Shown here one piece after another: positions 1-57,525 of a DNA stretch of 64,000 nt; the first letter of the stretch is position 1; the number at the start of each line of letters is the position of its first letter. Source of the stretch: Prorocentrum cordatum (lineage: Eukaryota); the NCBI GenBank assembly GCA_963575745.1, contig CAUYUJ010000122.1, positions 1 to 64,000 of the forward strand. Reading direction: 5' to 3'. A program made the position numbers and the translations under genes. A model generated the notes under the pieces. The model saw only the letters and a list, made by a program, of their open reading frames with translations, was not told the origin of the DNA and ran no database searches.

Positions 1-2539
1 ACCCAAAATCAATGAACGCACTGGAGTCTCAGGGTTGGGTCTCTTGTGAAGGTTTCTTGTGGACTGGCCCCCACTGCAGGGAGGGAGTGGAGCGGGAGGG
101 CCAGGATGACGAGGAGGAGGGGGAGGAGGACGCGAAGCGGAGACGGGGACGGACGAGGGAGGAGGGAGGAAGGTGGGGTCTGTGGCACTGCCAAAGACTG
201 GGCAGAATTGCCGCTCTTGCTGTGGCGCGCCGCCATGGAAACCTGGCCGAAGGGAACGATCCCAGACCGTCGACATCGTGATTTATTCATGACGCGGGCC
301 CCCTCAATCGACTCACATCATCCCCCTGGACCGATTTTGTATGATCTCGGGGCCTGAAAACGGCCACTGGACGACGAAATCACAGCATGAACAGAACAAT
401 TGAAACAGGCAACACAAAACTAAAGAAAACACCCGAATATTGAAAAAAACACGACGTCGGAAGTCTGAAGGCGATCGACGGTGCATCCGTGCCCTTTCTC
501 ACGCCCCAGCCCAACGAGGGCCCAGTGGAGGCATTGATGAAAATCCTGGCTGCGGTGACAAGTTTTCGTCCATGCTCTGCCCTCCTGAGGTGCAGAGTTG
601 AAGGCAGCAGTAGGCGCAGGGATGAAGCGTCGATGCTCAGCCCTAGGATACACGCCCCGTGCGGCTGCCGCGCAGGCGCCGAGATTCGGGCCGCCTGCCC
701 ACCGGTCGTTTATGTACAAGCGGGAGCACAGTAGTGCCCCCAGGAGCCCACTGGAGAAGGAAGGTGGGGAAGAGGAGGAGGAGGAGGACGACGAGGAGAG
801 GAATGAGGAGGAGGAGGAGGCGGAGGGAGAGGAGGGGGAGGGAGCGAAGAGAGGAGGAGAAGGAGGAGGACCAGAGTAAACCCAAGATGCAGCAGCGATA
901 CTGCGATACACCTTCTTGCCCCAAGTCCTCTACTTTCTGTTTCCCATCCTTGAAACTTTGCTATAACGACTGCCCGCTAAAACGAATGTGCGCGGCGCTA
1001 GGGCGCGATCTCCATTTTGATAACCACCCCCCTCCATCAGTGCAACTGTTATTACTTTCAAGCTTCAGCATCATCAGGTTTGTAAGGCATGGGGAAGTCT
1101 CAAGCCAAACGTCTGGCCCGCCCTCTACAGACACGCCTGGGGGCGGGACAGGGAGGAGCAATGTAGAATGAAAAGGGATGGAGGGGGGTGGAGGAGGAGG
1201 TGGAGGGGGAGGGGGAGGAAGAGGAGAACGGGAGGCGAACGAAGACGGCGCGGGGAAAGAGAGGACCACAACGACGAGAAGAACGAAGGGCAAGGGGGTA
1301 GGAAGGAAGGAGAAAGAGCCCACTGGCCAGGAGACCCTGCTCGTCGGCGAGGGCCACGAGGCCTGGGAACGGCCACTGGCCGAGCTCCGCAATACGGCGC
1401 GCCAATCTTCGCCCCTCGCACAGGTACGTGCCCGACGGTTGAAACACTTAAAGCGCTGCTATCTTTCCTGCAGCGTTTGAAAGGCTGCATGCCTAGCTGT
1501 ACCCCCCCCGTCCATCAGCACATACATATAAGGTACACACAGCTCGGGGCAATGATTTGTTGTACCCTCTCCGGCAGTACTGGTGACCGCGGTGGCCGTC
1601 GAATTGAGCGTGCAGCCTGGATGGCGCACCAACAGGGTCAGGATATCCCAACCTGTCGTGCTGGGTCTCGCCGAGGCGGGCCGTTGTCTTCAAACGTTGG
1701 CGGCGCGCAGAAGGGGGTAGGGAGAGGGTGGAAGGCTTCTTAGAAGGAGGCTGCTTCTTAGAAGGCGCTGGCCTTACATCTATAGAGAAGACCCTTACCT
1801 TCTAAGAAGCAGGGGTGTTTCCAAGAAGCCTTCCCGCCTCCCCCTACCCCCCTCTGCGCGTGGCTGAAAACGACTCAGAGCATCAAGTGAATATTCACGG
1901 CCGATGTCTGTGCCACAACGGCAGCCACCGTGGAGGAGGACGACGCCGACGAGCGGAATGGGACAAGGGACACGAAACACGCACGGCTTTCCACAGAAAG
2001 TCTAAGAAGTATTACACCCAGCTGATATATACACACATTGACTGCGCCGGAGGCTTTGAGAAGCACCCCACGAAAAAGTTGCTACGTATTGACAATCGGG
2101 AAGCCATCCGGACGGGTCCTGTGCTTCCCGCAAGGGGCACTCCTCCATACCTCGAGATCCGCTGCTCCAGCAGGGCACGTGCAGGCCGAAAACTGAACTC
2201 ACACCGAAAATGGCACTCGTGAGGCAGGCCCAATCGGCGCGCTCACTGCTCGACAGACACGAGCAGCACGCCGTCACCCGCGGCTCCGCACGACGCCCGG
2301 CCTCGACCTCGCCAAGGCCCCCTGCGCGCCCCCGTAGCCCGGGGGGATGATCTCGCTCAGCAGGGACTGGCCGTGCCTGTGGGATCGAAGGAAGCGGGCC
2401 CTGAAGGAAACGGGCCCTCTTCTTCCATCTCCCTGCTTTCCCCCCGCCCTTGCTTCCCATCCAATCACTGCTTTCATGCCATTGCTGCGCTGTCCAGGGT
2501 CACTACATCATGTACCGCACGCTAGTATACAAAAAAAAC

Positions 2540-13522: not shown

Positions 13523-14743
<1,221 letters not shown>

Positions 14744-15010
14744 TCGGTCCCGTGCACCACATCACCACGGCTCAACCGCCTTGGGAAGAGCGTCCTTGTG
14801 GCTGCCTCACTTCCTGTATGTAGCGAGCACCTTTTCTGGGTGAAAAGGCGGGTCTGACGTGCACGCAGCGGCGGGCGCTCATCCGAGGGCAGCTGGCCCC
14901 TACGGCCCAAAGTAAAGCGACAGCGGCGGCGCAGCAGCACACGGGGCGACCACAGTGCCGCCATCGAGGCCAACTAGCGCAAGTAGGCGCGAGAAGAGGC
15001 CAGGATGGCA

Positions 15011-18360: not shown

Positions 18361-21850
<3,490 letters not shown>

Positions 21851-23271
21851 CCTGCGTGCATTATTACTGCTACTAAAGAAAGAACGAGAAAAAAAAGAAA
21901 ATAAAAAAAAAAGAAAAACGGCGCCCCTCGCTGGGGTAGAAGCCAAGCGTCGTGTTGTCTCCTCCTCCAGTCGTGTTAGTGCGCCAGACGTCCACCCCTG
22001 AGGCTCTCAGGAGTTTCCACAAGGCTCGCAGGTGGTCGGAAAAATTCCCCGAACATCGAAGACTCAATTATTCAAGGTTTCGTCTTCGACTCCGTTCCCA
22101 GAGCCCCGACGTGGTGTCTGTTCATCGTGTCGGCACCCTTGTTGTCGTGAAATTATCCTCGGAGGGCCTCTTTGTGACGCTCCCGAGAGAGGGGACCAGG
22201 GAGGAGGGAGGAAGGAAGGAGGAGGGCGGAGGGAGCACGGATGGGGAGGAGGCAGATCTCGCGCACGGCGCTATCGGAGCCATCGAGGCTACGGATGAGG
22301 GAGGAGGAGGAGGAGGAGGAGGAAAGGAGGAGGAAGAAGAGGAGGAGGCGGAGAAGGAGGAGGAGAAAGAGGAGGAGAAGGAGGAGGAGGGGGAGGAAGG
22401 ATTAAAAGCAGGACGGATGAGGAGGCGGATGGCGACGACGAGCAGGAGGAGGAGAGGGAATGACGCCCGTCCTGGAGCCTCTTGGTGTCGCCTTGACTCT
22501 CCTAGAGCGTGCTGGGGGTCCTGTGGCCTGTTTGGGCTCTTCGGGGCCTCTTGGGGCCTCTTGGAGCCTCGTGGGCCCTCTAAAGCTCCGTGAGTGTGAT
22601 TCAAAGTGGTTTCTCCGGGGGGCTCTTGAGATCTCGTGGGCTCTCCCGGGGCCGCCATGGACCCTCCTGGAGCCTCCGTGGGCCCTCCAAGAACTCTCTC
22701 GCGGGGGCGGGATAATAAAACAATTTCGCGCATAGGGGCCTTTCCGTTGAGAAGGGGGGCGCGTTGCAGAGTGGGTCCTCCTGGGGCCCTCCGGAGATCT
22801 CCTGGGCACTCCCGGGGCCGCCATTGGCACTCCTGGAGCCTCTGGGGGCCTCTCAAAAGCCTCTCGCGGGGGCTGAAAAATGACGACAGTTTCACGGATG
22901 GGAGCCTTTCCGTTGAGAAGGGGAGCGCGGTGAAAGGTAATAAAGTGACGACAGTGTCGCATTTGAGGCCCCAAATCGTCCTTGGGCACCTCGGGCGCGA
23001 ATCCCCCTCCCGCATAGTACGGTGCGATTTCCCCTCCCCCCGCTGTCCCGCCGGACCCCGGGAGGGTGATTTTTGTGGTTTTCGCTTGTAAGAAACACTT
23101 CCCCCCCCCTCTCGACGGTGACGGAGGGCAGGCGGCGGGGGTGGGCGGGTTGGCGGGGTGGCGGGTTGGCTGGGGTTGCGGGGTGGCTGGTTGGGCTGGT
23201 TGAGCCGGTTGAGTTGTTTGGGTGGCTGGTTGGTTGGGTTGGCTGGTTGGGCTGGCTAGGGCAATTGGTTT

Positions 23272-25680
<2,409 letters not shown>

Positions 25681-25749: not shown

Positions 25750-25774
25750 CTCATCAGCATCATCATCATCATCG

Positions 25775-25812
<38 letters not shown>

Positions 25813-26167
25813 GTCATCATCATCATCATCATCATCATCACCATCATCATCAGCATCACCATCATCATCATCAGCATCATCAGCATCATAATCAGCATCA
25901 GCATCATCAGAATCATCATGAGAATCAGCATCGCCATAATCATCATGATCCTCATCATTATCATCCGCATCAGCAACATCATCAACATCATCGTCCACAT
26001 CATCATCCAATCAGCATCATCATCAGCACCAGCATCATCATATCCCCATCATCATCACCACCGTCACCACCACCAGCAGAATCACCGTCAACGTCAGCGT
26101 CAGCGTAAGAGCGGTCATCATCATCACCACCACCATCATCAAATTCATCAGTATCATCATCATCACC

Positions 26168-26201
<34 letters not shown>

Positions 26202-26850
26202 TCATCATGACAACCATCGTCATCATCCCCATCGTCATCATCATCATCATCAACAGCAGCATCATCATCCTCATCATCGTATTCATCATCATCATCATCA
26301 GCATCGTCGTCAGCATCATCATCAACACCTGCATCATAGTTCTCAGCATCATCATGATCATCGTCATCATCATCCTCATCACCACCACCACCACCACCAT
26401 CTGAATCATGACCAGCAGCATCATCAGCAGCATCATCATCATCATCACGGTTCATCTTCAACATCAGCATCAACAGCATGAGCATCATAATCACTTCCAT
26501 CACAATGATCATCATAATCATCGTCATCATCAACATCATCATCAAACCATCAACGTCATCATCATCATACTCCGCCTCCTCCTCATCCGCCTACTCCTCC
26601 TGCTCCAGATCATCGCCACCACCACCATCATCACCATCATCATCAACATCTTAAGCAGTAGTAGCATCCGCGTCATCATTGTAATCATCGTCATCTTCAC
26701 GATCATCATCAGCATCATCATCAATAGCAGCATCACCATCACCATCATCATCAGCATCGCATTCACCAGCACCTTCATCATCATCACCATCATTCTCGCC
26801 TTCCCCCACGTCATAATCGTCATGACGGCACAATCATCACCATCACCGTC
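25750..26850. repeat. (CAT)n degenerate microsatellite
   Basis: Directly visible. Confidence 0.95.
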
Positions 26851-28199: not shown

Positions 28200-29010
<811 letters not shown>

Positions 29011-30159
29011 TAATCCTCATCATCCTGCCGTCCTTCGCCCATCTCTTCCCCTTCTCACAGCTCCACTCCGGTCTCCCTCCTCCTTCTCCTCCTCCCTGCT
29101 CGTCTTCCTTGTCGTTGGCCAAACTCTGAGCAACGGAGCTCGCAGCGTGTAGATGGTAGCGAAAAAAAGACAACCGTTCCAGGCAACATGGCTGGCCTGA
29201 GTTCGGCTGCAAGAAAGTGCGGGCAAAAAGAGAAGGCAAAAAACATTGGAAAAGACGAGGAGCCCCCAAGGGCGTAGAGGAACTAAGCGAGCAGATAGTG
29301 AAGTACGAGGGAGCGCACGGCCATAATTAACTGGAGGAAGACACCGAAAAAGCAGGAAACGATTTGATAAACGGCATGCGGGCGGCAGCTGTGTTGGAGC
29401 GTATGTGTTGTGAGAAATACTGCCGGAAGTCCACTGTGGAATTCTGCAAGTGTGACCGTCCTCCTCCTTCTCTTCCTCCTCCTCCTCCTCCTCCTCCTCC
29501 TCCTCCCCCTTCTCCTGATCCCCCTCCTTCCTCCTGGTCTTCCCCCTCCCTCTCCCCCCCTTCCTCCTCCTCCGCGGCCTGCCCAAGCAGCGACTGCAGG
29601 GAGCTCACACCTCCCAGGGCGAGCGGCTTCGTGGGGGCATCGACGTGCGACGCGCCGGAGGGCTTCCGCCCTGGGGGGCCGCAGGCCACGCCGCCTTCGG
29701 ACCAAAGGAGTCTCAAGAGGAGGAGGAGGGAGGAAGCGCCATCCTCATCTCTTCCTCCTTGTGGTCCTCCCAGTGTTAGGTCGGGCATGTCATGTCCTCC
29801 TACAGGCGGATGTTGAAGGCAAACAAACAATCATCAACAAGGCAACAGAAACAAAGAAACAAAAAAAAAAAAAAAAAAAAAAATCCTTTCAAGACTGTTA
29901 GCTCTTATCTGCTCGCGTGTCATTCAACATGCATATCCCAAACCCTGGATATCCGCCCTCTTCGTCTTCGATCGTACCCCCTTTTGTGAGGTATATTCAT
30001 TCCCTGCCACGTGTGGTTGCTGAAGCCCTTGAAATCGAAGGGTAACATATAACAGGGGAGAATGAGGACGAAGGGATCGGAGGCAGGGAGGGGAGGGGCA
30101 AGAAGGAGGGAGGACGATGATTTGCGCTGTCGCCGTTGGCCAGAACACAACATGTCGCA

Positions 30160-32286: not shown

Positions 32287-32386
32287 NNNNNNNNNNNNNN
32301 NNNNNNNNNNNNNNNNNNNNNNNNNNNNNNNNNNNNNNNNNNNNNNNNNNNNNNNNNNNNNNNNNNNNNNNNNNNNNNNNNNNNNN
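32287..32386. other. Assembly gap (100 N) after a (CAA)n tract
   Basis: Run of N. Confidence 1.
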
Positions 32387-35300: not shown

Positions 35301-37443
35301 TCCTCCTCCCACTCCTTCTCCTCCTCCTCCTCCTCCTCCTCCTCCTCCTCCTTCTTCATCCTCGTCCTCCTCGCACTCCTCCTCCTCCTCCTCCTGTTTC
35401 CTGCAAGCATGAGAGTGCGCCGCACGCTGCCGCTCTCCTCCTCCTCTCCTCCTCCTCCTCCTCCACCACCTCCTCCTCCTCCTCCTCCTCCTCCTCCTCC
35501 TCCTCCTCCCCTCCCCTCCTCCTCCCCCTCCCCCTCCTCTCCTCCTCCTCCTCCTCCTCCTCCTCCTCCTCCTCCTCCTCCTCTCCTCCTCCTCTCCTCC
35601 TCCTCCCCCTCCCCCTCCTCCTTCTCCTCCTCCTCCTCCTCCTCCTCCTCCTCCTCCTCCTCCTCCTCCTCCTCCTCCTCCTCCCCCTCCTCCTCCTCCT
35701 CTCCCAGGGAACGAATGAGGGAGGGAGGAGCGAGGACGGGAGCAGCGGGGAGACGAAGAGGGTGGTTGCGGCAATAGGGTCCACACCCCAGGTGGAAGCC
35801 TGGTGCCTGCACGGCGGAGGCCTGCCGCCTGGGATGTCAGAACGACGGCCTTCCTCGTCCTCGTCATCGTCCTCGTCGATCGAGGGTCGCGCTTTGCTCG
35901 GTCTCCTGGAGCAGCTACGGCGGGAGCCGCCTCCGGATTCGGGTCCGAGCGCCTAGGAGTCGATCGCGGGCGGAGGACTCAGACCTCGGGCGTCGCAGCA
36001 GAAATGGTGACGGTGGGTCTCCGTTCGGTTCTGGCATCGGGAGACCCGTTGTGGGCCTCGGGCCCACGAAGCAAAACTGGATGTCGGATGTGAGGGTCCC
36101 TCTGCCTTCCCGCTTTCTGTTTCTCCGATGAAGCTGCTCATTCTGAATATTGCCGGCCCCTCTCGCCAGACGACGTGTTGTCTCGTTGTTCTTGCACAAA
36201 GGTTCCCAGGCTGTCCGTAACTCTTCTTGGGTGGTTGCTTCTGGTAGCACTTGCGTTTTGAGAAGTGTAACTCTTCATTGGCAGAATGGTATCTATAGTG
36301 CGCTTCGGCTCAACCCGCCAACGTGCTCGGGTGGTGGACCAGGGGTCTCTTGGGACGCCTCTTGATGGTTTACTTGGGCCAATTGGGATCTCGGTGGCCA
36401 CGGCGGGGTACAGCGCTCGGAATGTCAGGTCGGGCTCCTACTCTTGGGCTGCTCTCGGGGCCATGGGAGGCCTCTCTGGCCCTCTTGGGTGCCTCTGCGG
36501 CCGACTTGGGAGGAGGAGGAGGAGGAGGAGGAGGAGGAGGAGGAGGAGGAGGAGGAGGAGGAGAAGGAGGATGAGCTTGCCCAAATCATCAACAAATGTC
36601 TAAAGCCTCTTGGGCTGGCCCCCCCAGGGGCCTCCCAGACGGCCCAAGCAGGCCCTCAAGAAGGCCCCTATGACGGTGCCATTGGGGCCATCGCACGGCG
36701 GGTGGGAGGTGTGGACGGCCAGCCGGGATCCCGACACGCGCGAACGTGCGACAGCCTCTGGTGGATGGTGTCTTCTGGTCGCGACGGGCCGCCTTCTCGT
36801 GGCGCCGGAGGTCTGGGCGGCTTGCGCGCCTCGCGCTGCTGGTCATGGGAGGATGGCGTCGGACGGGGCTCGGACGAGGACAAATCCGACGCTGAGCCCA
36901 CGCTGGAAGTCCGAAAACAACAGCATCCAGAGGCCAGGTCGCGCCAGACCTCCCGACCGCTCGTTGGCGGCTGCGGGGCTCCACCCGCAACAGAACGGGG
37001 TTGAAGGCAGAAGATGCGACGATTGGCGCACACGTCGTCGGAACACCTCCGACACAGGCAGGGTGGGCGCCAAGGTCATGCGCCCAGGGTCCGTTCCAGA
37101 GCGTTCCCGAACGAGGAGGAGGAGGAGGAGGAGGAGGTGGAGGAGGAGGAGGAGGAGGCGGAGGAGGAGGCGGAGGAGGAGGAAAGGAGGAGGAGGAGGA
37201 AGAGGAGGAGGAGAGAGGAGGAGGAAGAGGGAGGAGGGGAGGAGAAGGAAGAGGAGGAGGAGGAGGAGGAGAGAAGGAGCGAGAGGAGGAGGAGGGGAGG
37301 AGGAGGAGGAGGAGGAGGAGGAGGAGGAGGAGGCTCTCAGAGCGTTCTGGAACTCCTTGAGGAGGCCGCGGCGCGAGATGCATCCTCCAGAGCCGCCAGA
37401 CCTCAGAGACCCTCGACTCATCCTCGCCGAAGTTTGCCCTCGT

Positions 37444-37553
37444 GCTGGATTCCCTTCGGGGATCATCCGTTAACATCGGAACGATACAGAGAGGATTAGC
37501 ATGGGCCCTGCGCAAGGATGACACGCACACATCGAGAAGTGTATACAAGTTTC
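37444..37553 (+). ncRNA. U6: U6 snRNA copy (diverged, probably retroposed/pseudogene) with an A-rich tail at 37556-37593
   Basis: GGAACGATACAGAGAGGATTAGCATGGGCCCTGCGCAAGGATGACACGCA matches the conserved U6 core (ACAGAGA box, AGC triad, ISL) with a few substitutions. It has a 5' CTTCGG stem-loop and no long 3' T-run. Confidence 0.93.
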
Positions 37554-37932
37554 CCAAACAAATAAAAATAAAAATAAAAAAAAACATAAAACAGCTTAGC
37601 CTCGTCCTGGCTCCGTCTCCTGGCGCGCTCGCGAGCTCGTGGCTCGCGGGCCGGGGGGGAGGCCTGCCGAGACCCGCCGGGCTGCTCGCGCCCCCGAAGC
37701 CTGGCCAGGGGCGCCCAGACCTCCCCGCGGCTCGTGGCAACCATCGCCTCGGCACCCTTCGGCCTCTGGTCAGGAGAGGAAAAAAGCACACAGACACAAT
37801 TAATCTTCGATTCCCCAGAAAACATGGGAAAATATGGGAAGTGGGGGGGAAGACAAACACCCAGAAAATATGAGAGAATATGGGGAATATCATTATTTGT
37901 GTGTATTTATTGGTGTGTCCTGGGGCCCCTTC

Positions 37933-38115
37933 ACTCTGGGGGTGGACAGAACCCCCAACAGTGACACGTCGATTAGTGAACTGTCCGTTTTCGGTTCTCG
38001 AGAGGGCGCCGCGGCCGCTATCTTCCAGGCTGGCGCCCGCCAGGTTTGGGCCCGAGGTCGTTTTCACGAAACCACGTTTTACTGAAGGGAGGTCTGTCCA
38101 TCCCCGACTCTGGGG
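37933..38115. mobile_element. Dispersed repeat 'family B' with short terminal inverted repeats and a 9-bp direct repeat
   Basis: Body ACACGTCGATTA...GAGAGGGCG...GTTTTCACGAA is shared with 56908-57058. TGGACAGA/TCTGTCCA inverted ends; ACTCTGGGG at 37933 and 38107. Confidence 0.7.
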
Positions 38116-38704: not shown

Positions 38705-38945
38705 GACTCGGGTTTCTTTGGGCGCCCGAGTTATCAGGGGTAACTCGGGTCAGGGCTAACTCGGGCTCGTTTTTCGGGAATCCGAACCCGAGTTGCCCCG
38801 GGCCCGAGTTACCCCAGAGAACTCGGGCGCCCAGAGCCCCGAATCATCAGGGGTAACTCGGGTCAGGGCTAACTCGGGTTCGTTTCTCGGGAATCCGAAC
38901 CCGACTTACCCCCGGCCCGAGTTACCCCGGATAATTCGGGCGCCC
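38705..38945. repeat. ~112-bp tandem duplication rich in AACTCGGG/CCCGAGTT inverted motifs
   Basis: GGGTAACTCGGGTCAGGGCTAACTCGGG at 38738 and ~38851. Confidence 0.8.
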
Positions 38946-39347
38946 AAGGTTCTGGAGGGGCCACACGGCTGGAGGCAGTTCGAGTACGTACAAATTTGCG
39001 GATAAAGCGAATGTTGGTTTCGACAGGGGCTCGATATTGCTCGGGTCCTGCCTGCCTTTGTTTCTCCTCTTTTGAGCTCTTCGTGCATCTGGGCGCAACT
39101 GGGGCCCCAAAGGGGCTCAGTTCCTCATCCATGTTTCCTCATAGCAGACCTGTGCCGGTGCTAACGCTATGCGAGCCCAATCTCTGCCGAACATGGCGGA
39201 CTCTTTTTGTTTTAATTCCGGCCTCAGGGGGCCCACCTCGAGGCCACAGGTCGGTCGACAACCGACCTGGGATGGAACTCTGGCCAGCAAGACCGACTGC
39301 GGGACGATCGAGAGCAGCAGCGTCAACAAGAGGGGGGTAGAAGTAAA

Positions 39348-41442
39348 TCGGGCATGTCCCTCTACAGGAGGAAAACCCCAAATCGTCAAGAATGGTCTCG
39401 GGACGACTTTTTCAAGGACTGCTTTTTTTGTCTATGTTTGAGTCTGTTTCGAGTATTCTTGATTTTTCGCCCAACCTCCGCCTGTAGGGGGACATGCCCG
39501 ACCGAAGGGCAGAAGGCGTCGGCGGCCTGCTTGCAGAGCTCGGGCCGGACGAAAGGGGCGGATAGGGAAAGGGGGTGTTACGAAATCTGCTGCTTGCAGC
39601 TGGTTTCGGCCCCGCCGCCGGGCCCATCCCTCGATACATGGGCGCCTCCCGGCGCCGGGAGGCGCCGGGAAAATCAGCTATAGGTGAGCTGATTCTCACC
39701 CCCCGCCTTTGCTATCCCCCCCTTTCGCCTGGCCCGAAGAGAGCGGTGGCGCGCGCTGCCTCGAGGCGCACAGCGCCCTGCGGGGGGGCCCTCCCAGGGG
39801 GGGCCTCGGGGCTGCGAGGGTGCGCCGGGGACTCGCACCTCCGACGCCGTGACTTTTTCACAAGGAGGAGGAGGAGGAGGAGGAGGAGGAGGAGGAGGAG
39901 GAGGAGGAGGAGGAGGAGGAGGAGGAGGAGGAGGAGGAGGAGGAGGAGGTTTTTTGTCCTTGTCGGCCTCTCGGGGCCCTCGCCGGGCCTCGGGACCGTC
40001 AAGAAACAACTCGGGATGAGAAACGGGTCCCGGGGAAGGTGTCGGGAGGTCGGGGGCCCGTGTCTCGAAAAAGTCGAGACGTCGGATGTCTGGGAATGTC
40101 GACCCCCAGAGGTCCAGACCCCTTCCCCGGGGCCGGCTTCTCGTCCCGAGTTGTTTTCTGACGGTTCCGAGGCCCAGTCAGGGTCCCCGCAGGCCGAACA
40201 TAGTGAAAAACGCGTCGCCGTGTCTTTTTCACAGCGCGATGAGGGTCTGGGTATCAGGCCAGCGCGGTCCACATGCGCGTGGGCATCCGCTGTCACGTCG
40301 GGACCGTCCGCGGAGGCGAGAGAGAGAGCGGTGCTCACCCGGGTCTGAGGCCTTGCTGTGGCCAGGGACCTGGCTGGAGTCGGCGCCCCCCTCCCCCAAC
40401 CAAATCAATTACCGACCACGGCATCCCCCCAAACCCAAGTCGACCTGAGTTTTCGGGCCGAATGTTCGGCCCATCCTCCCCTCGGACCACGGCATCCCCT
40501 CCTCCTCCTCCTCCTCCTCCTCCTCCTCCTCCTCCTCCTCCTCCTCCTCCGCATCAAGTTGACCCCGGGAAAACCGGCGTCCGCCCAGGTGAGCTGCTGC
40601 TGGGTGCCGCGCCGCTGTCCGGCGAGCAGCTATGTGGCTTCCTGCGCGGCTGCGAGGACAGGGGCGGATGGGGAAACGCCCCCGATGGCTTACCGAGAGC
40701 ACGAGGGCGATGAGCAACACCAGCTTTGGAAGGGTGCCGTTTTCTTCGTGTTTGGGCTCTCCGCCTTGGAGTGTCGTTCGCTTTGGGTGCCTCCATGCGA
40801 GAAGTCGGGCCTCTCCCCCTACAGGGGGATTTTCGACGAAAAATCAAAAAACACCGCAAACATACCCCCAAACATTAAAACAGATTCGACAGATAGGCCC
40901 CAGACTATTTTTTGACTGTTCTTGGGGTCTTTTTTTATTTTTTTTGTTTTTCGTCGAACATCCCCCTGCAGGGGGACACGCCCGACTGGGGCCTACGGCG
41001 AAGGAGCTCATGTTCTCCTCCTCCTCCTCCTCCTCCTCCGTCGCCCTCCTCCTCCTCCCCCTCCTGCTCCTCCACCTCCTTCTTCCTCCTCCTCCTCCTC
41101 CTCCTCCTCCTTGACCCACGTTCTCGTGGCAATGCTTCGACCGTGGCCAGGGGCAGGCTCACGCACCGCTCGGTGCGTGCTCGTGGCTCGTCCAGGACGC
41201 CCCGTGGCTCTGCGCCTCCCCGTTCCCTGGCAGGGAGATCGTCCCCAGGATTACGTCGGGCCTGTCCCCCTACAGGGGGATGTTCGACGAAATATAAGAC
41301 ATGCCCCCAAAATGATCCAAAAATGCTGCAAAAATAGTCCGGGGACTGTTTTGTTGACTATTTGTTGATCTTTTTGGTGTATTTTTTGTTTGGTATTTTT
41401 AATTTTTCGTCGAAGATCCCCCTGTAGGGGGACACGCCCGAC
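39348..41442. mobile_element. Three copies of MITE 'family C' (39348-39502, 40804-40986, 41255-41442)
   Basis: Each has ~22-bp terminal inverted repeats of the form GTCGGGCNTGTCCCCCTACAGG...CCTGTAGGGGGACAYGCCCGAC around variable AT-rich interiors. A further copy is at 57114-57425 and a half copy near 29780. Confidence 0.85.
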
Positions 41443-44400
41443 ATAACACCAGGACTGCCCGCTTCAGTGTGAAGCCTCTGAAGGAGGGGACCCGCTGGAG
41501 CCTCCATCTGCCCCCACTGTCGCCAAGGTGCCGCTGAGGGAGTTTGAGTGGACCAGGGATTCCTCGACAACTGTGGCGCTGCATTGTCAACGCGCAACCT
41601 CGGTATGTGGAGCCGCTTTCGTGAAGCCCTGTTTCTTGAACTGTTTGCGTGCAACCTTGTGTATTGTAGTGCTTACTTGTGAACTTACTTGTGTTTTGCA
41701 GCTTGCACGTGCGGCTGCATCCTGTACCGCACCCGTGCAAGCTGTAACCTTGCACTGTTGAGCTGTACTCTTGTGTCTTGTAACGCTGGCGCCAATAAGG
41801 CCTTCAAGACTGTAAGATATCATATGCCAGGGTACGGGGGGGCCGGGACGGGGGCCGGCCTACCCTGCTGGAATTCCCCGCCCCCCCCTTCTGGTCCACG
41901 ACATCTTCGACCCGCCAACACAGCTCTGGAGGCCGCCAAAAAGCAGCCAGAGCGGCCCCACACGTTCGCTTGTGAGGTCTTAACATCGTCCTAGACGGCC
42001 GAGGAGGCCCCCAAGATCGCCCCAAGAGGGCCCAAGAGGCTCCCAAGGGGGCCCCAGGACGGCCCAAGCGTGTCTTAAGACGGTCCAGACGCACCCAGAA
42101 CTGCCCAAGAGGGCCTTAAGAAGGGTCCAAGAGGGGGAGCTCCAACTGATATTTCGAGCCCTCCGCTAGGACCCAGGAAGCTTCAAACTCGCTACACGAA
42201 GCGCCCGAGAAGCATGCCAATAGACCCATAATTCCAGGTATCCAATAAGACTCTGACCCAAACCTCAGGCACTCAGGCTTCAGATCCGCCGCCCCCTGTC
42301 CTAGACTTCAGGTGGTTTCTGATTCTTTTTGAGACTCCCCCTGGGGCTTAGGTCCATCGCGCCGGCCACCTGGAAAGCTTGCCAGGTTACATCTCCCGTC
42401 GCCTTTTTCCGCTTAAGATGGCCTCCGAGACGGCCAAGATAGCCTCCCCGACGGCCACGTTGACGGCAACAGAGCCGAAGATATGCCCAGCATGGCTTCC
42501 GAGATGGTCCGAAGATGCCTCCAATACCGCTCAGATGGTCGAAGAGAGCCCAAGACTACCCAAGATTCGTCCAAGAGGCTTCCAGGATGGCCAGAAGGCA
42601 TTTAAAAGCTCCTCCAGGGCAGCCCGAAGAGGCCAAGATCATTGAATTCTGTTAGGCTTTTGAAGGATCTTGGTATTTGCTTCGAAATAGCCTTCCGAGT
42701 GCCCAAGACGACCCAAGAGGTCCCCACGATTGCCCCTCGCCCAATAGGCCTCCAAGATGGCCCAAGAACTAGCTGCCCCAGGGGCTCCCAAGACGGCCCC
42801 CGAAGGGCCACCAGGTAGCCTCCAAGACGCCGAAAGGACGACCCTATGCGCCCCGAGGGGGTCCCAAGAGCTCAGAGAGGCTCCGAAGACGGTTCCCGAT
42901 GGCGTCGGACGGGCCAGGAACGCCGTAAGATTGCCAAAGAGAGACCCAAGAAGCCCCCAAAGGCCCCCAAGAGGCCCAAGGAGGCCCCAAGAGGCCTCCA
43001 AGAGGCTCCCAGCAAGCTCCCAGGGGGCCCTAAGAATGTCCGAAGAAGCTCCCAAGAGGCCTTCTCATCATCCTCCTTTCTCCTCCCTCTCCTCATCCTC
43101 CTCCTCCTCCTCCCTCACGTACTCCCCGAAGGGCTTTCACAAATGCTGGTTGAACGCATGGTCCAATAGCGTGGCCAAGCTTTGCCCAAACGTTTGGCCA
43201 CATAGGCGTATCCTAAAAGGCAGGGGGCGGCGGTGATTCGCCGTAGGCGTCTTCGATAAGCAAGCTCTTGGCCTGGCCACATACCCATCCCAATGCAGTC
43301 ATGTGTAGCGTGAGGCGCGGGCCTCTCTTCATATACTGCGCGCCGCGCGGTAATGCGGAACGCGGGCTGCTGTGGAGCACGCGCGCACGGGCGCGCAGAA
43401 CTCCTTGTGGGGCACGGTCCGCGTGAAGGGTGTGCCGAGTGACTCGGATGCCCCCGCGCGAGCACGCCCACTGAGGCCGCAGGTGGAGCTCCTCTGGGCA
43501 CGACCCGCTGGAGGCATGTGCCGACCTGGGCGGGGGGACGCCGTGCGAAGCTGCCCATGGGTGCCATGATAGGGAGTTCCTTCTGGGGCACGAGTTGCGC
43601 GACGGGTGTGCCCGGGTCTCTGGGCCTGTATGTAGTCTTCTTTGTTGGCACGATCCGCGTGATTGGGTGTGCCCCAGTGAGCGGGGGGTCGCAATGCGAC
43701 ACCTGCCCCTTGCGCCGTAGGTCCAGATCCCTGTGGGCCACGGTCCGTGTGAGAGGTGTGCTGACGTAGGCGTGGAGCCGGGATGCTATGACTCTGGGGC
43801 CGTCGGAGAAAACTCCCTGCGGGCCATGATCCGTGTGAGAGGTGTGCAGAAGGGAGCGGGGCTACGCTTTGAAGCTTGCCTCTGGTGCAGCAAATGCAGT
43901 TACTTGAGTGGCACGAGTGCCACTGTGCGAATTTTGGCCCTGGCGAAGTAGATGGAGCTCCCTGTGGGGCGCGATCCTTGTGAGGGGTTTGCCCGAGTGG
44001 GCGGGGGGACGCTAAGCCAAGTCTGTTTCTATGGCCGTCGGTGGAGCTCCTTGATGGCCATGATCCGTGTGACACTGTATGTCCTCCGACGCCGAGCACC
44101 TTAGACTACAACCACAGCTTGTTAGAACCTAAGCGCGCGAAGCGCTCGAATGGTTTTAGTGTATTGCTCGATTGTTTACGTGCAATTTTGCGCGTTGTAT
44201 GGTCAAGCGTGTAACTTTGTGTGCGGTACCGTTTGCGTGCAACCTTGCGTCTTGTACAGCTTACGTGTAATGACAAACTGAACGGTTTGCGTGCGCCATT
44301 TGTGCACTGTATCGCTAACGTGTAAGGTAAGACCGCGCCTCGTACCGGTGTAGTTTCTCGTCAACAATTTCTTGCAGGGCGGTCGGGCGAGTCTGGAGGT

Positions 44401-49165: not shown

Positions 49166-49630
49166 GAGGAGGAGGATGAGGAGGATGAGGAGGAGAAGAA
49201 GAGGAAGGAGGAGTAGGAGGCGTCCAAGTAATAACAATAACCCCATCTTAGGATATGGGAAGTATGGGAGATTGCATGACGTTCCATGGCGACTGGGTAT
49301 ATGATGGCCGTGTGCAATCTGATCGGCAGGAAATCGGAATGGCTCCAGGTGCATCCTTTCCTATTTCAGCTGGGCCTGTTGCATTGGTCAACTGACTGCA
49401 GGCGTCAATGGTGTTGCGCGTCATCCCCTCTGTTCCCCTCCTTCTTCTTCCTCAACGCTGCGCTGTGAAGAAACATATCCGAAGCAATATCGATAGTCAT
49501 TATTATGTGATTGCTTTGTGATGTGTGTGTGTCTGCGCAGGAGTTATGTCCAAATGTTATGGGCTTCAGTTGTCTTAGCGCACACAGGAAGTCGTTCCGT
49601 CCGCTGTGCTGGCGCAGCTACTATTGTAGC

Positions 49631-50653
49631 ATGCCGCGATGGGCACGCTCCGGCGGTGGAACCGGCAGTGCTCGCGCCGACGCTCCGACGAATTGTTTGC
49701 CGCTGTGTCGCGAGGCGGAGGGCGCGATGGGAGGCGATGGACTGGTTAGCGATCTCAGGATCGACCCCGACGGTCTCACGCCGCCTGGGAAGCAGCTGCT
49801 GCCAGGCTTCGTCCACTACCCTGGCGTCCTGTCGCCCGAGCTACAGCAAGCCCTGCTCGACGTGGCTGTGTCGGTGACGTCTAGGGCCCGGGACGAGGGG
49901 GTGAGCGGAGGCTGGCACCGCAAGGACGATAACGGAAGATGGTCTCTGAACGACGGGACCAAGGCGCGGTTTTGGGACAGGATCGACGGCATCTTCCCCA
50001 AAGGCTTCCGGGAGCTCGGCCAGGACCTCGCGAGGCTCTCCGCCAGGGACTTCCCGAGGGATCTGGCTGCGCCAGTGGCAGCCTTCGAGCCGCAAGTGGG
50101 TGCCGTGAACTACTACACTGGGAGGGGCCGCATGGGCTGGCACGCCGACGACTACAACTTCGCGAAGAAGGACCGGCCCATAGTCATGGCCAACCTGGGC
50201 GATGCCGCGGAGTTCGGCTACCGGGCACCGGTGGCCGCCGCGGCGACGGGCGCAGAGCGCTCCGTGCGCCTGGAGTCGGGCGACGTGGTCGTGTTCGGCG
50301 GCGAGGCTCGGGACCTCGTCCACGCTGTGCTCCGGGTGTACGAGGGCACGACGCCCACCAACCTCCGCGGGGGCCCCGGCGGCCCCGGCCCGCTGGTCGG
50401 CCGCGTGTCCGTCACCTGGCGCGACTGTGGCCCAGAGGACGGGCTGACTTTCAACTCGGACGAGCGGCTCGGCCTGACGGTCACCGAGAACACGCTGCCG
50501 CGCTACCTGGCGAAGCGCCGCGGTGGCGGCGGCGGCGGTGGCGGCGGTCGGGCCAGGTCCGCCGCATGCTGGGGCTGCGGGGGCGCCGTCGAGTCCAGCG
50601 GACGGGCTGGCCAGGGGTATTGTCAGGCATGCTGGGATTCTTGGCGGAGATGA
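49631..50653 (+). CDS. AlkB-family 2OG-Fe(II) dioxygenase (AlkB/ALKBH1-like) with a C-terminal CxxC-x12-CxxC motif; intronless
   Basis: VNYY...MGWHAD (HxD), PIVMANLG, LESGDVVVFGG.AR...HAV (distal His) and RVSVTWR (RxxxxxR). Start is ATG 49631 or 49727. Confidence 0.92.
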   Translation: MPRWARSGGGTGSARADAPTNCLPLCREAEGAMGGDGLVSDLRIDPDGLTPPGKQLLPGFVHYPGVLSPELQQALLDVAVSVTSRARDEGVSGGWHRKDDNGRWSLNDGTKARFWDRIDGIFPKGFRELGQDLARLSARDFPRDLAAPVAAFEPQVGAVNYYTGRGRMGWHADDYNFAKKDRPIVMANLGDAAEFGYRAPVAAAATGAERSVRLESGDVVVFGGEARDLVHAVLRVYEGTTPTNLRGGPGGPGPLVGRVSVTWRDCGPEDGLTFNSDERLGLTVTENTLPRYLAKRRGGGGGGGGGRARSAACWGCGGAVESSGRAGQGYCQACWDSWRR

Positions 50654-55184: not shown

Positions 55185-55330
55185 TCGGCCACGCGCAGAG
55201 GTGGGTAGGGGGAGGGGGGAAGGCTTCTCAGAAGCACTTGATCTTCTCAGTAGGCGCGGGCCTGATCTAGAGACGTAAGGCCAGCGCTTTCTAAGAAGCA
55301 GCGTCCTTCTAAGAAGCCTTCCCTCCTCTC
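55185..55330. repeat. Dispersed repeat, inverted copy of ~1725-1870
   Basis: CCACGCGCAGAGGTGGGTAGGGGGAG...CTTCTAAGAAGCCTT matches the reverse complement of 1731-1865. Confidence 0.8.
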
Positions 55331-55964
55331 CTGACCCCCTTTGTGCGCGCCGCCAATCCCAGACCCCCGACGTCGTGAGTTTTCCGCAACGTCGACCCCC
55401 AGAGGTCAGGACCCCTTCCCTGGTTCTGCGTCGTTTTCTGACGGTCCCGGGGCCCAGGAAGCACCCCAGAGGCCGAAACGGGCGAACGACCTCCCGTCGT
55501 GATTTTTCGCAGCGCGAGGGGGTCTGGGCCTTTTTCGCGCGCCGACCATGAGCGGCCTCCACAAGGGTGCCTCCTGGGGTCGGAGTAGCTGGGGTCGGAG
55601 GGTCGCGCCGCATCGCCGATGCGTCGCCGATGCGGCGCGATGCGCAGCCCGACTCTCTCCATGCCGACGTCGCTGGTGCCTCGCCGACGTCGCCGGGGCA
55701 TCGCCGCTGCATCGGCGATGCGGCGCGAGCCTCCGAAGCCAGGTGCTCGGACCCCACCTGGGAGGCCTCTACAGTCGGGGCCCTGAAGAAGGAACTCTTT
55801 TGGTTGGGGAGGGGCTCCGCGTTCCTTAAGTGTTTCGCAGCTTGCCTCAGGCTTTCCTTATGTTTTCGACAGGAAATCGAAGGTTAACTTATGGAAAAAA
55901 GGGGCCTCGTTCCTTATTTAGGGTTCCTTAGGTCAACGCCCCGGCTGTAGTTTGCGCGCCGCCA

Positions 55965-57525
55965 ATGGGCGGCCTCCGCCAAAGGTGCCTCCTGCTCTCC
56001 CTCCTGGCCCTCGCGGTCCTCAGCGGGCTCCGGCTGGCCCTCGTGGGCGCGCCAGGCCCGGGGGCCCCCGAACGGGGTGGTGGCCACGCCGTGCGGTGAG
56101 TCGGCGGGGATTCGGGGTCACCGCACGGTTTTGGGACTCGGGTCGTTCGCCGAGGACGTCTCGGGCGACTGGGGCACCCGAGGTCCCAAGACCATGCGTT
56201 GACAGACCGTGCGGTGAGGTCTTGGGGGATTTCGAGGTCACCGCCGCGCCCCAAGCTCCTCCTCCTCCTCCTCCCTCCTCCTCCTCCTCCTCCTCCTCCT
56301 CCTCCTCCTCCTCCTCCTCCTCCTCTCCCTCCTCCTCCTCCTCCTCCTCCTCCCTCCTCACTCCTCCTCCTCCTCCTCCTCCTCCTCCTCCTCCTCCTCC
56401 TCCTCTCCTCCTCCTCCTCCTCCTCCTCACTCCTCCTCCTCCTCCTCCTCTCCTCCTCCTCCTCCTCCTCTCCTCCTCTCTTCTCCTTCTCTTCTCCTCC
56501 TCCTCCTCCCCCCCTCCTCCTCGGGGGTCCGTCACCGCGCCGTTGCGGGACCCCAGCCAGGCCGCGCCCCAAGCCCACCGCCGCCCGAGCCCACGGGCGC
56601 GGCGCAGCTGGCCGGGGAGGCGCCCGCGGGCCCCACGGCGCCGGCGGGGGGCCCCGCGGGCGGCCGCCCGGCGCCGCGCGCCCTCGCCCTCGACAGCGAG
56701 CAGGGGCGCGAGGCGTCCCGGCTTCGGGGGTGGACGGACCTCCTACCCGCGCCGCGGATCTCCTCTGCCGCGCCGCGACGGGCAGAGTCTGCACGCTGCC
56801 TGGCTCGCCCCTCTGACGTTCAGCTCGTCCTCGCCCCGCGCCGGACAAGCCGCACACCCGAGCCGAGGTCTGAGACGTTGTCCCGTTGCCCCCCAGAGAT
56901 GTCGGAGGTTGATAGACCTCCTACTAGTACCCTGACACGTCGATTAAGGAATTGGCCGTCTTCGCTTCGCGAGAGGGCGTCGCGGCCGTCCTTTTTGCGG
57001 GTCCGGGTCCGTCGGTTTCGGTCCCAGGCCGTTTTCACGAAGGGGAGGTCTACTAAAGGGAGGTGTGTCCATCGCCGATGGCTCGCCTGGAGGCCAACCA
57101 AAGGAATGTGTCAGTCGGGCCTGTCCCTCTAGCAGGAGGAATACAGTCAAAAACCCTAATCAGGACTCTCAGGGTACCCTTGCGTCCTTGCTCTTCCTTG
57201 CTCTTGCGTCCTTGAGGTTTTCGTCGTCCGCCGCCCCAAAAATCCCAACTTCGGCTTCCAAGGGTCTTGCGTCCTTGCCGCGCGTCCTTATTAGGGTTTT
57301 GACTGCATTCAGAAATAGCAGAAAAATAGTCAGGGGACGAGTTCGTGTTGTAGTTTTGGGCATTATTTGCGTATGTTTCGCGTGTTTTTTCGTCCAGGAT
57401 CCCTCTGTAGGAGGACATGCCCGACCTAAGGCGAGGCGTCCTGGCTCGCCTGGAGGCCCAGCAACGAATGTCCTAAACACCTTTTGTGGTCTGCACGAAG
57501 TGCTTTTGGAGCAGTTCTGGCCGAG
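55965..57525 (+). CDS. N-terminal exons (55965-56055, 56561-56907, 57059-57103, 57431-57525) of a signal-anchored protein
   Basis: MGGLRQRCLLLSLLALAVLSGLRLALVGAP hydrophobic anchor. The frame stays open across GC-AG, GT-AG and GA-AG junctions, giving a Pro/Ala-rich stem. Probably continues into the 58084 ORF. Confidence 0.6.

Follow-up and report, generated by a model that had tools for sequence, protein, structure and literature searches.

What is a copy of the spliceosomal RNA U6 doing between two short, nearly identical repeats in the DNA of the dinoflagellate Prorocentrum cordatum, and how much should be made of the fact that the opposite strand of the same insert can be read as a short intron? 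In this article, I will discuss one such locus, which lies in a window of 64 kb (the whole stretch of contig CAUYUJ010000122.1 that was analysed, 64,000 nucleotides), and argue that it is probably a processed, that is retroposed, U6 pseudogene in repeat-rich dinoflagellate DNA. Under this explanation, a U6 small nuclear RNA (snRNA) molecule would have been reverse-transcribed and then inserted into the dinoflagellate genome, the passage through RNA being suggested by the form of the insert, and the most likely agent would be a non-LTR retrotransposon of the LINE type, acting through its endonuclease and reverse transcriptase, its enzyme being deduced from the putative product. That product would comprise three parts, the U6-derived body, a tail rich in A and a target site duplicated over 11-18 bp, and the insertion site would be repeat-rich DNA without detected coding signal, either intergenic or within a long intron.

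The U6 copy and the repeats that frame it

The original prediction described a U6 copy with an A-rich tail between near-identical 11-bp direct repeats, and this description was confirmed position for position (Table 1). The Rfam model of U6 (RF00026) matches the plus strand with 90.1 bits (E 9e-22) over model positions 1-105 of 105, this is the sole Rfam match over the gathering score in the 64-kb window, and relaxing E to 0.1 leaves the number of U6 copies there at one. The copy retains the ACAGAGA and AGC motifs, and its core has two mismatches at upper-case (highly conserved) positions of the consensus, at both of which the U6 genes of two relatives (L001 and L003) keep the consensus. Directly 3' of the U6-derived part, and within the direct repeats, follows an A-rich stretch from about 37556 to 37594, which is not pure poly(A), being interrupted by T and C and separated from the core repeat by 5-8 non-A bases. 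The core repeats, CCTCGTGCTGG and CCTCGTCCTGG, are identical at 10 of 11 positions and their extended forms at 14 of 18; they abut both ends of the U6-plus-tail unit, and the last G of the left core repeat (37448) is also the first base of U6.

Table 1. Positions of the features discussed, in coordinates of the window (a slash in a motif marks the splice boundary).
Feature	Position	Strand	Remarks
Left TSD-like direct repeat	37431..37448		Core CCTCGTGCTGG at 37438-37448; weaker extension back to 37431
U6 snRNA-derived body	37448..37559	+	Rfam match 37448-37553; similarity to L001/L003 extends to AAAC at 37556-37559
A-rich tail	37560..37599	+	About 12-nt periodic AAATAAAAATAA pattern, terminal CAGCTTAG; inside the direct repeats; the final 7 nt may belong to the extended right repeat instead
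Right direct repeat	37593..37610		Core CCTCGTCCTGG at 37600-37610; extension from 37593
Hypothetical 162-nt GC...AG/G unit	37439..37600	-	Candidate; donor GAG/GCTAAG, acceptor CACGAG/G; sole G[TCA]..AG register in the repeats
Dispersed-repeat-derived DNA	37781..38107		Right flank, from about 170 nt off the insert

The direct repeats beat chance moderately. When the two flanks were shuffled 5000 times, a repeat of at least 11 nt with at most one mismatch arose in the same geometry 9 times (0.18%); random placements without tandem repeats gave it in 77 of 4000 (1.9%), and over all random placements in the window the rate is 16.5%, owing to the tandem repeats that make up 38% of the window.

A metagenome scan, with a 23-mer of the U6 5' end as the query, gave four loci; each is a U6 copy, gene-like or degenerate, that belongs to a 5S/tRNA cluster in another organism, and none of the four represents the same locus or the same element or has such an A-rich tail. 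The U6 genes L001 and L003 score 93-94 bits and stand beside 5S rRNA genes, and when the copy is aligned with them, the similarity begins at 37448 or 3 nt before it (three extra matching bases that are possibly due to chance) and stops at 37559. The DNA up- and downstream of the copy is unrelated to the flanks of these genes, in a comparison across species where flanks diverge anyway. No T-run that could serve as a Pol III terminator stands next to the copy, the nearest TTTT 3' of it on the plus strand being at 37988, some 430 nt off, and this argument is weaker than it would be in animals because L001 and L003 also have no T-run right after U6 and a T5 only about 47 nt downstream. Since the terminator is missing and conserved core positions have changed, the copy is most likely inert, as far as its sequence can tell. 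A role in splicing is probably absent as well.

Taken together, the locus has the features expected of a processed snRNA pseudogene, namely a copy of the mature RNA only, an A-rich 3' tail inside the duplications and a flanking target-site duplication (TSD); and the claim that the copy was retroposed is upheld by the tail, the TSD-like repeats, the absent terminator and a similarity to relatives that covers the RNA-coding part only. A LINE enzyme of the L1 type is not implied, since the duplicated site begins with CCTCG (AGTTTG when extended), has no leading A's and departs from the TTTT/A preference of L1, the consensus used for comparison being that given in the portion of PMC4476161 drawn on here. 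The TTTT/A signature, which is absent at this target, marks L1-mediated events only and not retroposition by other LINE clades.

The minus-strand GC...AG register and its surroundings

The original prediction went on to propose that the insert may act as an intron, which raises the question of whether an exon of some minus-strand gene received a U6 retrocopy, which is now removed as a 162-nt GC-AG/G intron, its splice sites being drawn from a duplicated AGG and from the insert's first base. I consider this unlikely, even though the register itself was correctly recognised: on the minus strand the unit reads GC...AG from 37600 down to 37439, then G, and exactly one register does so, just as the proposal would have it. 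The proposal also draws on the habits of the lineage, since in the sequenced P. cordatum genome GC stands at 51.4% of donor sites and AGG at 79.7% of acceptor sites (Table 2 in PMC10666404, as excerpted here), and dinoflagellate introners take one or both splice sites from TSDs such as AGGH (Roy et al., bioRxiv 10.1101/2020.10.14.339549). The same habits, however, make the boundary easy to obtain. When the same insert was placed into random 11-mers of the window as targets (20000 trials), GY..AG boundaries appeared on the minus strand in 9.5% of cases and on either strand in 28%, and with dinoflagellate donors (G[TCA]..AG) the rates for random 11-bp targets were 15.1% on the minus strand and 45.2% on either strand. 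The GC...AG boundary of the 162-nt unit is no better than chance, because GC donors and AG/G acceptors are the norm in this lineage, and the GC...AG/G reading would be a side effect of insertion at a site where AGG chanced to be present. An intron or introner role is left unsupported by a pattern that is the commonest of the lineage and arises in 15-45% of simulated insertions, and the label 'antisense' presupposes a minus-strand gene that is itself hypothetical. Terminal inverted repeats are not found either: 37300-37750 has 13 inverted-repeat pairs, of which none connects the two ends of the unit.

An exon would have to be sought in the flanks. The 160 nt adjoining the insert have a GC content of 78%, a pyrimidine tract plus CAGAG/G precedes this block on the minus strand, and just downstream of the unit 18 of 20 codons in one minus frame end in G or C, four of them from a TCC repeat. 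These features might be hints of a minus-strand gene, and in the same direction point the length of 162 nt, a multiple of 3, and the fact that two of the three minus frames are open across the junction. Yet the best-scoring minus frame of the right flank meets a stop six codons past the junction, the best frames to the left and right of the unit disagree, and no frame reaches the codon score of the window's real gene: codon usage in all six frames of the flanks is at most 0.137, against a minimum of 0.235 for the verified gene and a null 95th percentile of 0.160, in a model trained on one gene. GC content by codon position is.72/.77/.85 in the right flank and.65/.53/.71 in the left, compared with.71/.51/.88 in the window's one verified gene, and the flanks have no codon periodicity.

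Homology gives a similar picture. Among 94 ORFs of 75-169 aa in 30-45 kb there were no Pfam matches, those of the flanks included, and among the 94 of the window's 157 ORFs of at least 170 aa that were scanned there was one real match, 12 kb from the insert; no reverse-transcriptase ORF was seen in either set. The sole verified gene of the window, a 2OG gene, lies on the plus strand, whereas the putative intron calls for a gene on the minus strand. An ESM Atlas look-up of this 2OG gene yielded no clue to taxonomy; protein matches indicate a dinoflagellate, probably Prorocentrum-like, and on their account a haptophyte resembling Emiliania, which the GC-rich DNA and GC-AG introns had brought into consideration, was given up as the host. 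In the right flank, minus frame A had one match among proteins of 124-398 aa, which is repeat-derived, and none among those of 399-2000 aa, while minus frame B, compared with 1.84 billion representatives, had three weak matches, of which the best is repeat-derived and falls outside the 170 nt adjoining the insert and the next (P0055) is a repetitive, unrelated protein; among the matches inspected, neither frame has a non-repeat homologue. Dispersed repeats begin only 170 nt from the insert, with 37781-37864 showing 68% identity to P0054 (translated, 28 aa), 37930-38016 showing 83% identity (29 aa) to P0001, an 'unnamed protein product, partial [Prorocentrum cordatum]', and 37962-38107 showing 76% identity to 56933-57078 of the window itself. 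The flanks that had been called exon-like thus lack periodicity, codon-usage and Pfam signals, as well as a homologue in the frames tested. Finally, introns in P. cordatum average 4709 bp and intergenic distances 26 kb (PMC10666404, in the portion used here), so that a random insertion is far likelier to fall into intron or intergenic DNA than into an exon.

Other origins for the same arrangement

Could the insert instead belong to a multi-copy retroelement headed by U6, with members spread through the genome, such as a SINE, or a chimera in which U6 is joined to the 3' end of a LINE or an mRNA? The question is invited by the 40-nt stretch that leads from the U6 body to the right repeat, which is not pure poly(A), has a period of about 12 nt and ends in non-A bases, and animals have both snRNA-headed SINEs (PMC4494074) and U6/LINE chimeras (PMC6789731; Group IV in PMC4476161). 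These 40 nt, however, contain no LINE-like or other recognisable 3' module, and no second copy of U6 plus tail occurs in the 64-kb window or in the four related metagenome loci (tail in 0 of 4), both of them small samples. I consider this origin very unlikely, and the SINE that the original prediction had entertained is left without backing. Considered as a group, the intron, introner and SINE roles are unsupported here, and I regard them as improbable.

A U6 cDNA or RNA may also have been captured as filler while a staggered double-strand break was being repaired, with no LINE endonuclease involved, and would have left the same product. Break repair has been held responsible, in Daphnia, for newly gained introns with short direct repeats on either side. 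The start of the target site, which is not A/T-rich, differs from sites of the L1 type (by the L1 consensus in the part of PMC4476161 used here) and agrees with such a capture. Against it stand the A-rich tail exactly at the 3' junction, which is what target-primed reverse transcription predicts, and the fact that many LINE clades are without strong site preference. I hold capture during repair, too, to be very unlikely.

Very unlikely, again, is that the copy functions as a U6 gene or did so until recently, or that it arose by duplication of such a gene at the DNA level, with the repeats and the A-rich stretch a coincidence: its full-length, high-scoring match, the ACAGAGA and AGC motifs it has kept, and the finding that the L001 and L003 genes likewise have no TATA-like element upstream and no immediate T-run speak for such a gene, and they are outweighed by the want of a T4 for 430 nt, the two altered core positions, flanks dissimilar to those of related genes, the precision with which the repeats frame the U6-plus-tail unit, and the missing 5S/tRNA linkage of the relatives (the 64-kb window has no tRNA genes and no 5S rRNA genes over the Rfam gathering score).

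What the locus means and how it compares with known systems

A processed U6 pseudogene is an ordinary kind of genomic fossil, here in an unusual host. The retroposition of mRNA is already well known in dinoflagellates. A limited search of the literature found no account of snRNA retropseudogenes in this group, and the locus would serve as a minor sign that Pol III transcripts, too, are retroposed by LINE-type machinery in dinoflagellates. More would follow if the retroposed U6 lay in an exon of an unannotated minus-strand gene and were spliced as a 162-nt GC-AG/G intron with sites from the duplicated target, which I think quite unlikely. It would then be an intron born by retroposition, and once excised its RNA would be antisense to U6, which is the spliceosome's catalytic RNA; if the same held genome-wide, a retroelement class of introner would stand alongside the DNA-transposon ones. 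Should such retrocopies become introns, intron gain in the intron-rich genomes of dinoflagellates could use any retroposed RNA with an AGG target site.

The U6 pseudogene favoured here can be set beside several systems that resemble it in part. SINEU elements have heads from U1 or U2, a LINE-related tail and many copies. They share with the U6 copy a spliceosomal snRNA head (Kojima, 2015; PMC4494074, as excerpted), and differ in that the U6 copy has no LINE-related tail and no further copies in the 64-kb window or the four metagenome loci. Dinoflagellate introners likewise have direct repeats with AGG as potential splice sites, but in the portions of the two sources used here they occur in many copies, for the most part resemble DNA transposons, with terminal inverted repeats and TSDs of 3-8 nt, and are defined by splicing from genes (Roy et al., bioRxiv 10.1101/2020.10.14.339549; PMC10666404), whereas the U6 copy is single in the 64-kb window, has no terminal inverted repeats, and has an 11-18-nt repeat and a signature of retroposition. 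The U6/LINE-1 chimeric retrocopies (Group IV in PMC4476161; PMC6789731, both in the parts used here) also have U6 at the 5' end, an A-rich end and flanking TSDs, and the present copy differs from them in having only about 40 nt of A-rich sequence after U6 and no recognisable LINE or mRNA segment. Finally, compared with the Group II, or poly(A), processed snRNA pseudogenes of mammals (Doucet et al., 2015; PMC4476161, in the sections drawn on here), the copy has a dinoflagellate host, no TTTT/A signature, a short and interrupted tail, and repeats with one mismatch in 11 or four in 18. What it has in common with them is a full-length snRNA copy and an A-rich 3' tail, TSDs of at least 10 nt, flanking gene sequence that was left uncopied, and a presumed lack of function.

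A U6 copy and its relatives

The original prediction of a U6 copy with an A-rich tail lying between near-identical 11-bp direct repeats is borne out at the coordinates tabulated below, with a full-length Rfam match (model positions 1-105 of 105, 90.1 bits, E 9e-22) that is also the sole family above its gathering score in the 64-kb window. A laxer E of up to 0.1 gave no second U6 in the window, the extra matches being only sub-threshold ones to hairpin and miRNA models. The first base of U6 is also the last base of the left repeat, the right repeat begins 5 nt past the A-rich tail, and a weaker extension of both repeats (14/18 identical, starting at 37431 and 37593) would, if real, place the right repeat immediately after the tail.

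Coordinates of features in the window and at two metagenome loci carrying related U6 genes
Feature	Position	Strand	Detail
U6 copy	37448-37553	+	
A-rich stretch	37556-37594	+	directly 3' of U6; ~12-nt period
Left direct repeat	37438-37448		CCTCGTGCTGG; 10/11 identical to right repeat
Right direct repeat	37600-37610		CCTCGTCCTGG; 10/11 identical to left repeat
AlkB-like gene	49559-50650	+	intron-less
Dispersed repeat family	37781-38107, 56933-57078, 39955-40047		
Tandem hairpin copies	38716-38947		113-nt spacing
Long hairpin-forming elements	40803-40987, 41245-41452, 1696-1869, 55201-55339		
Trinucleotide satellites	13539-14744, 18362-21845, 23274-25666, 25751-26793, 28210-29024		kilobase-scale; CTA/ACT/TCA/CAT units
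Other A-rich runs	29849-29883, 21889-21918	+	
Assembly gap	32287-32386		100 N
L001	335-440 / 1001-1122		U6 / 5S rRNA
L003	1050-1155 / 368-489		U6 / 5S rRNA

A scan of metagenome contigs using a 23-nt probe from the U6 5' stem-loop turned up four loci. In L001 and L003 a U6 scoring 93-94 bits has a neighbouring 5S rRNA gene at about 560 nt, a linkage typical of dinoflagellates; in L002 and L004 the U6 is degenerate (73 bits) and lies amid tRNA and 5S genes. In an alignment with L001 and L003, the first 27 nt of the window copy match throughout, the likeness stops at AAAC (37559), the DNA on both outer sides is unrelated, and the copy departs from the upper-case Rfam consensus at two core positions where both loci retain it. 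Both loci have a T5 run ~47 nt past U6 and no T-run directly at the Rfam 3' end; the first same-strand TTTT downstream of the window copy comes only at 37988. That delayed T5 hints that in this lineage U6 may be 3'-extended or its terminator unusual. In the window itself no 5S rRNA match reaches the Rfam gathering score, and no tRNA gene was found.

Since this is an RNA-length copy with an A-rich tail inside duplications, lacking a terminator, bearing core substitutions and sited away from Pol III clusters, the element is a retroposed U6 pseudogene (a processed snRNA pseudogene), which is a known kind of element, and no published description of a dinoflagellate snRNA retropseudogene was found in the narrow literature consulted. 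The U6 RNA was likely reverse-transcribed at its target (target-primed) by a LINE-type element. The target site is without the L1 TTTT/A signature, and no reverse-transcriptase ORF occurs among those scanned with Pfam (94 of the 157 of at least 170 aa in the window, and a further 94, each of 75-169 aa, in the 30-45 kb region). A minor alternative to LINE-type insertion is that a cDNA was captured while a break was being repaired.

Chance levels and the repeat-rich surroundings

Direct repeats with a match of at least 11 nt, at most one mismatch and the geometry seen at the U6 unit arose in 9/5000 shuffles of the two flanks, in 77/4000 random placements avoiding tandem repeats, and in 16.5% of all random placements in the window, the last because TRF masks 24,072 of its 64,000 bases (38%) as tandem repeat. 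The repeats around the unit thus moderately exceed chance expectation.

GC content in the window is about 60%, simple repeats are very numerous, and the trinucleotide satellites show an extreme C-over-G skew. A protein search with the right flank matched P0001, "unnamed protein product, partial [Prorocentrum cordatum]", at 83% identity over 29 residues; the matching segment is also repeated elsewhere inside the window, and short "proteins" such as P0001 and P0054 are probably spurious gene calls on dispersed repeat copies. The two tandem hairpin copies, 1.1 kb from the U6 copy, are 91% identical, each unit being itself palindromic, and jointly form a near-perfect hairpin of ~230 nt (RNA fold -185 kcal/mol, z -15.3 vs shuffles) that is MITE- or introner-like. 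On both strands the four long hairpin-forming elements match models of plant miRNA precursors at scores far under the gathering score, and they are probably further palindromic transposon-like repeats. The two other A-rich runs, of which one contains 23 consecutive A's, could mark the 3' ends of further retroposed sequences, with no element recognised upstream of either.

The window's only clear gene encodes an AlkB-like 2OG-Fe(II) oxygenase (81 bits to PF13532 in Pfam), whose best named relatives are in Polarella glacialis (60% identity) and in a Symbiodinium-clade-B gene set. A protein of 308 aa that is 100% identical occurs on six contigs, the longest of 1416 nt, and the gene may therefore be expressed. 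Taken with the Prorocentrum match above, these relatives mark the window as dinoflagellate DNA, probably from a Prorocentrum-like species.

The proposed intron and dinoflagellate introners

It was also proposed that the unit is removed as a 162-nt intron of a minus-strand gene, bounded by GC...AG/G in exon-like flanks. Exactly one such register does exist within the repeats (37600 to 37439), but its boundary is no better than chance: when the insert was kept and its target site replaced by each of 20,000 random 11-mers drawn from the window, a GY..AG unit could be formed in 9.5% of simulated insertions on the minus strand and 28.0% on either strand, rising to 15.1% and 45.2% with the dinoflagellate donors GT, GC and GA, and the G following AG comes free because it is the same duplicated-site base as the donor's first base. 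Table 2 of PMC10666404 lists P. cordatum donors as GT 24.7%, GC 51.4% and GA 23.8%, with AGG acceptors at 79.7%, genome GC of 59.7%, and means of 240 bp per exon, 4709 bp per intron and 26 kb between genes; on those figures GC...AG/G is the commonest pattern in the lineage, and the boundary therefore holds little information.

The flanks did not prove exon-like in the frames tested. The 160 nt adjoining the insert are admittedly 78% GC, this block being preceded on the minus strand by a pyrimidine tract and CAGAG/G, and downstream one minus frame has 18/20 codons ending in G or C, four of them from a TCC repeat. However, GC by codon position (.72/.77/.85 in the right flank,.65/.53/.71 in the left) is unlike that of the AlkB-like domain (.71/.51/.88), and codon-usage log-odds in all six frames of both flanks are at most 0.137, against 0.235-0.760 in the AlkB-like gene's own windows and a null 95th percentile of 0.160, under a model that is weak because it was trained on that gene alone. 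The 300-nt windows around the insert show no periodicity except at a GGA repeat, and none of 94 ORFs encoding 75-169 aa in the 30-45 kb region has a Pfam match. As homology queries, right-flank minus frame A has no homologue besides the dispersed repeat, and minus frame B has three weak matches, the best lying in another dispersed repeat at 37781-37864, beyond the 170 nt adjoining the insert. Across the proposed junction the best-scoring minus frames of the two sides do not fit together, frame B meeting a stop six codons past it, and the sole verified gene in the window is on the plus strand.

That the unit is an intron, an introner or a SINE is, all three taken together, quite improbable; the idea is based on a boundary pattern that chance readily supplies in this genome. 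Splice sites of dinoflagellate introners can be taken from target duplications such as AGGH, as described in a preprint (bioRxiv 10.1101/2020.10.14.339549), which speaks for an introner; unlike those elements, however, the U6 unit is known from one copy only, is without terminal inverted repeats and is flanked by a much longer duplication.
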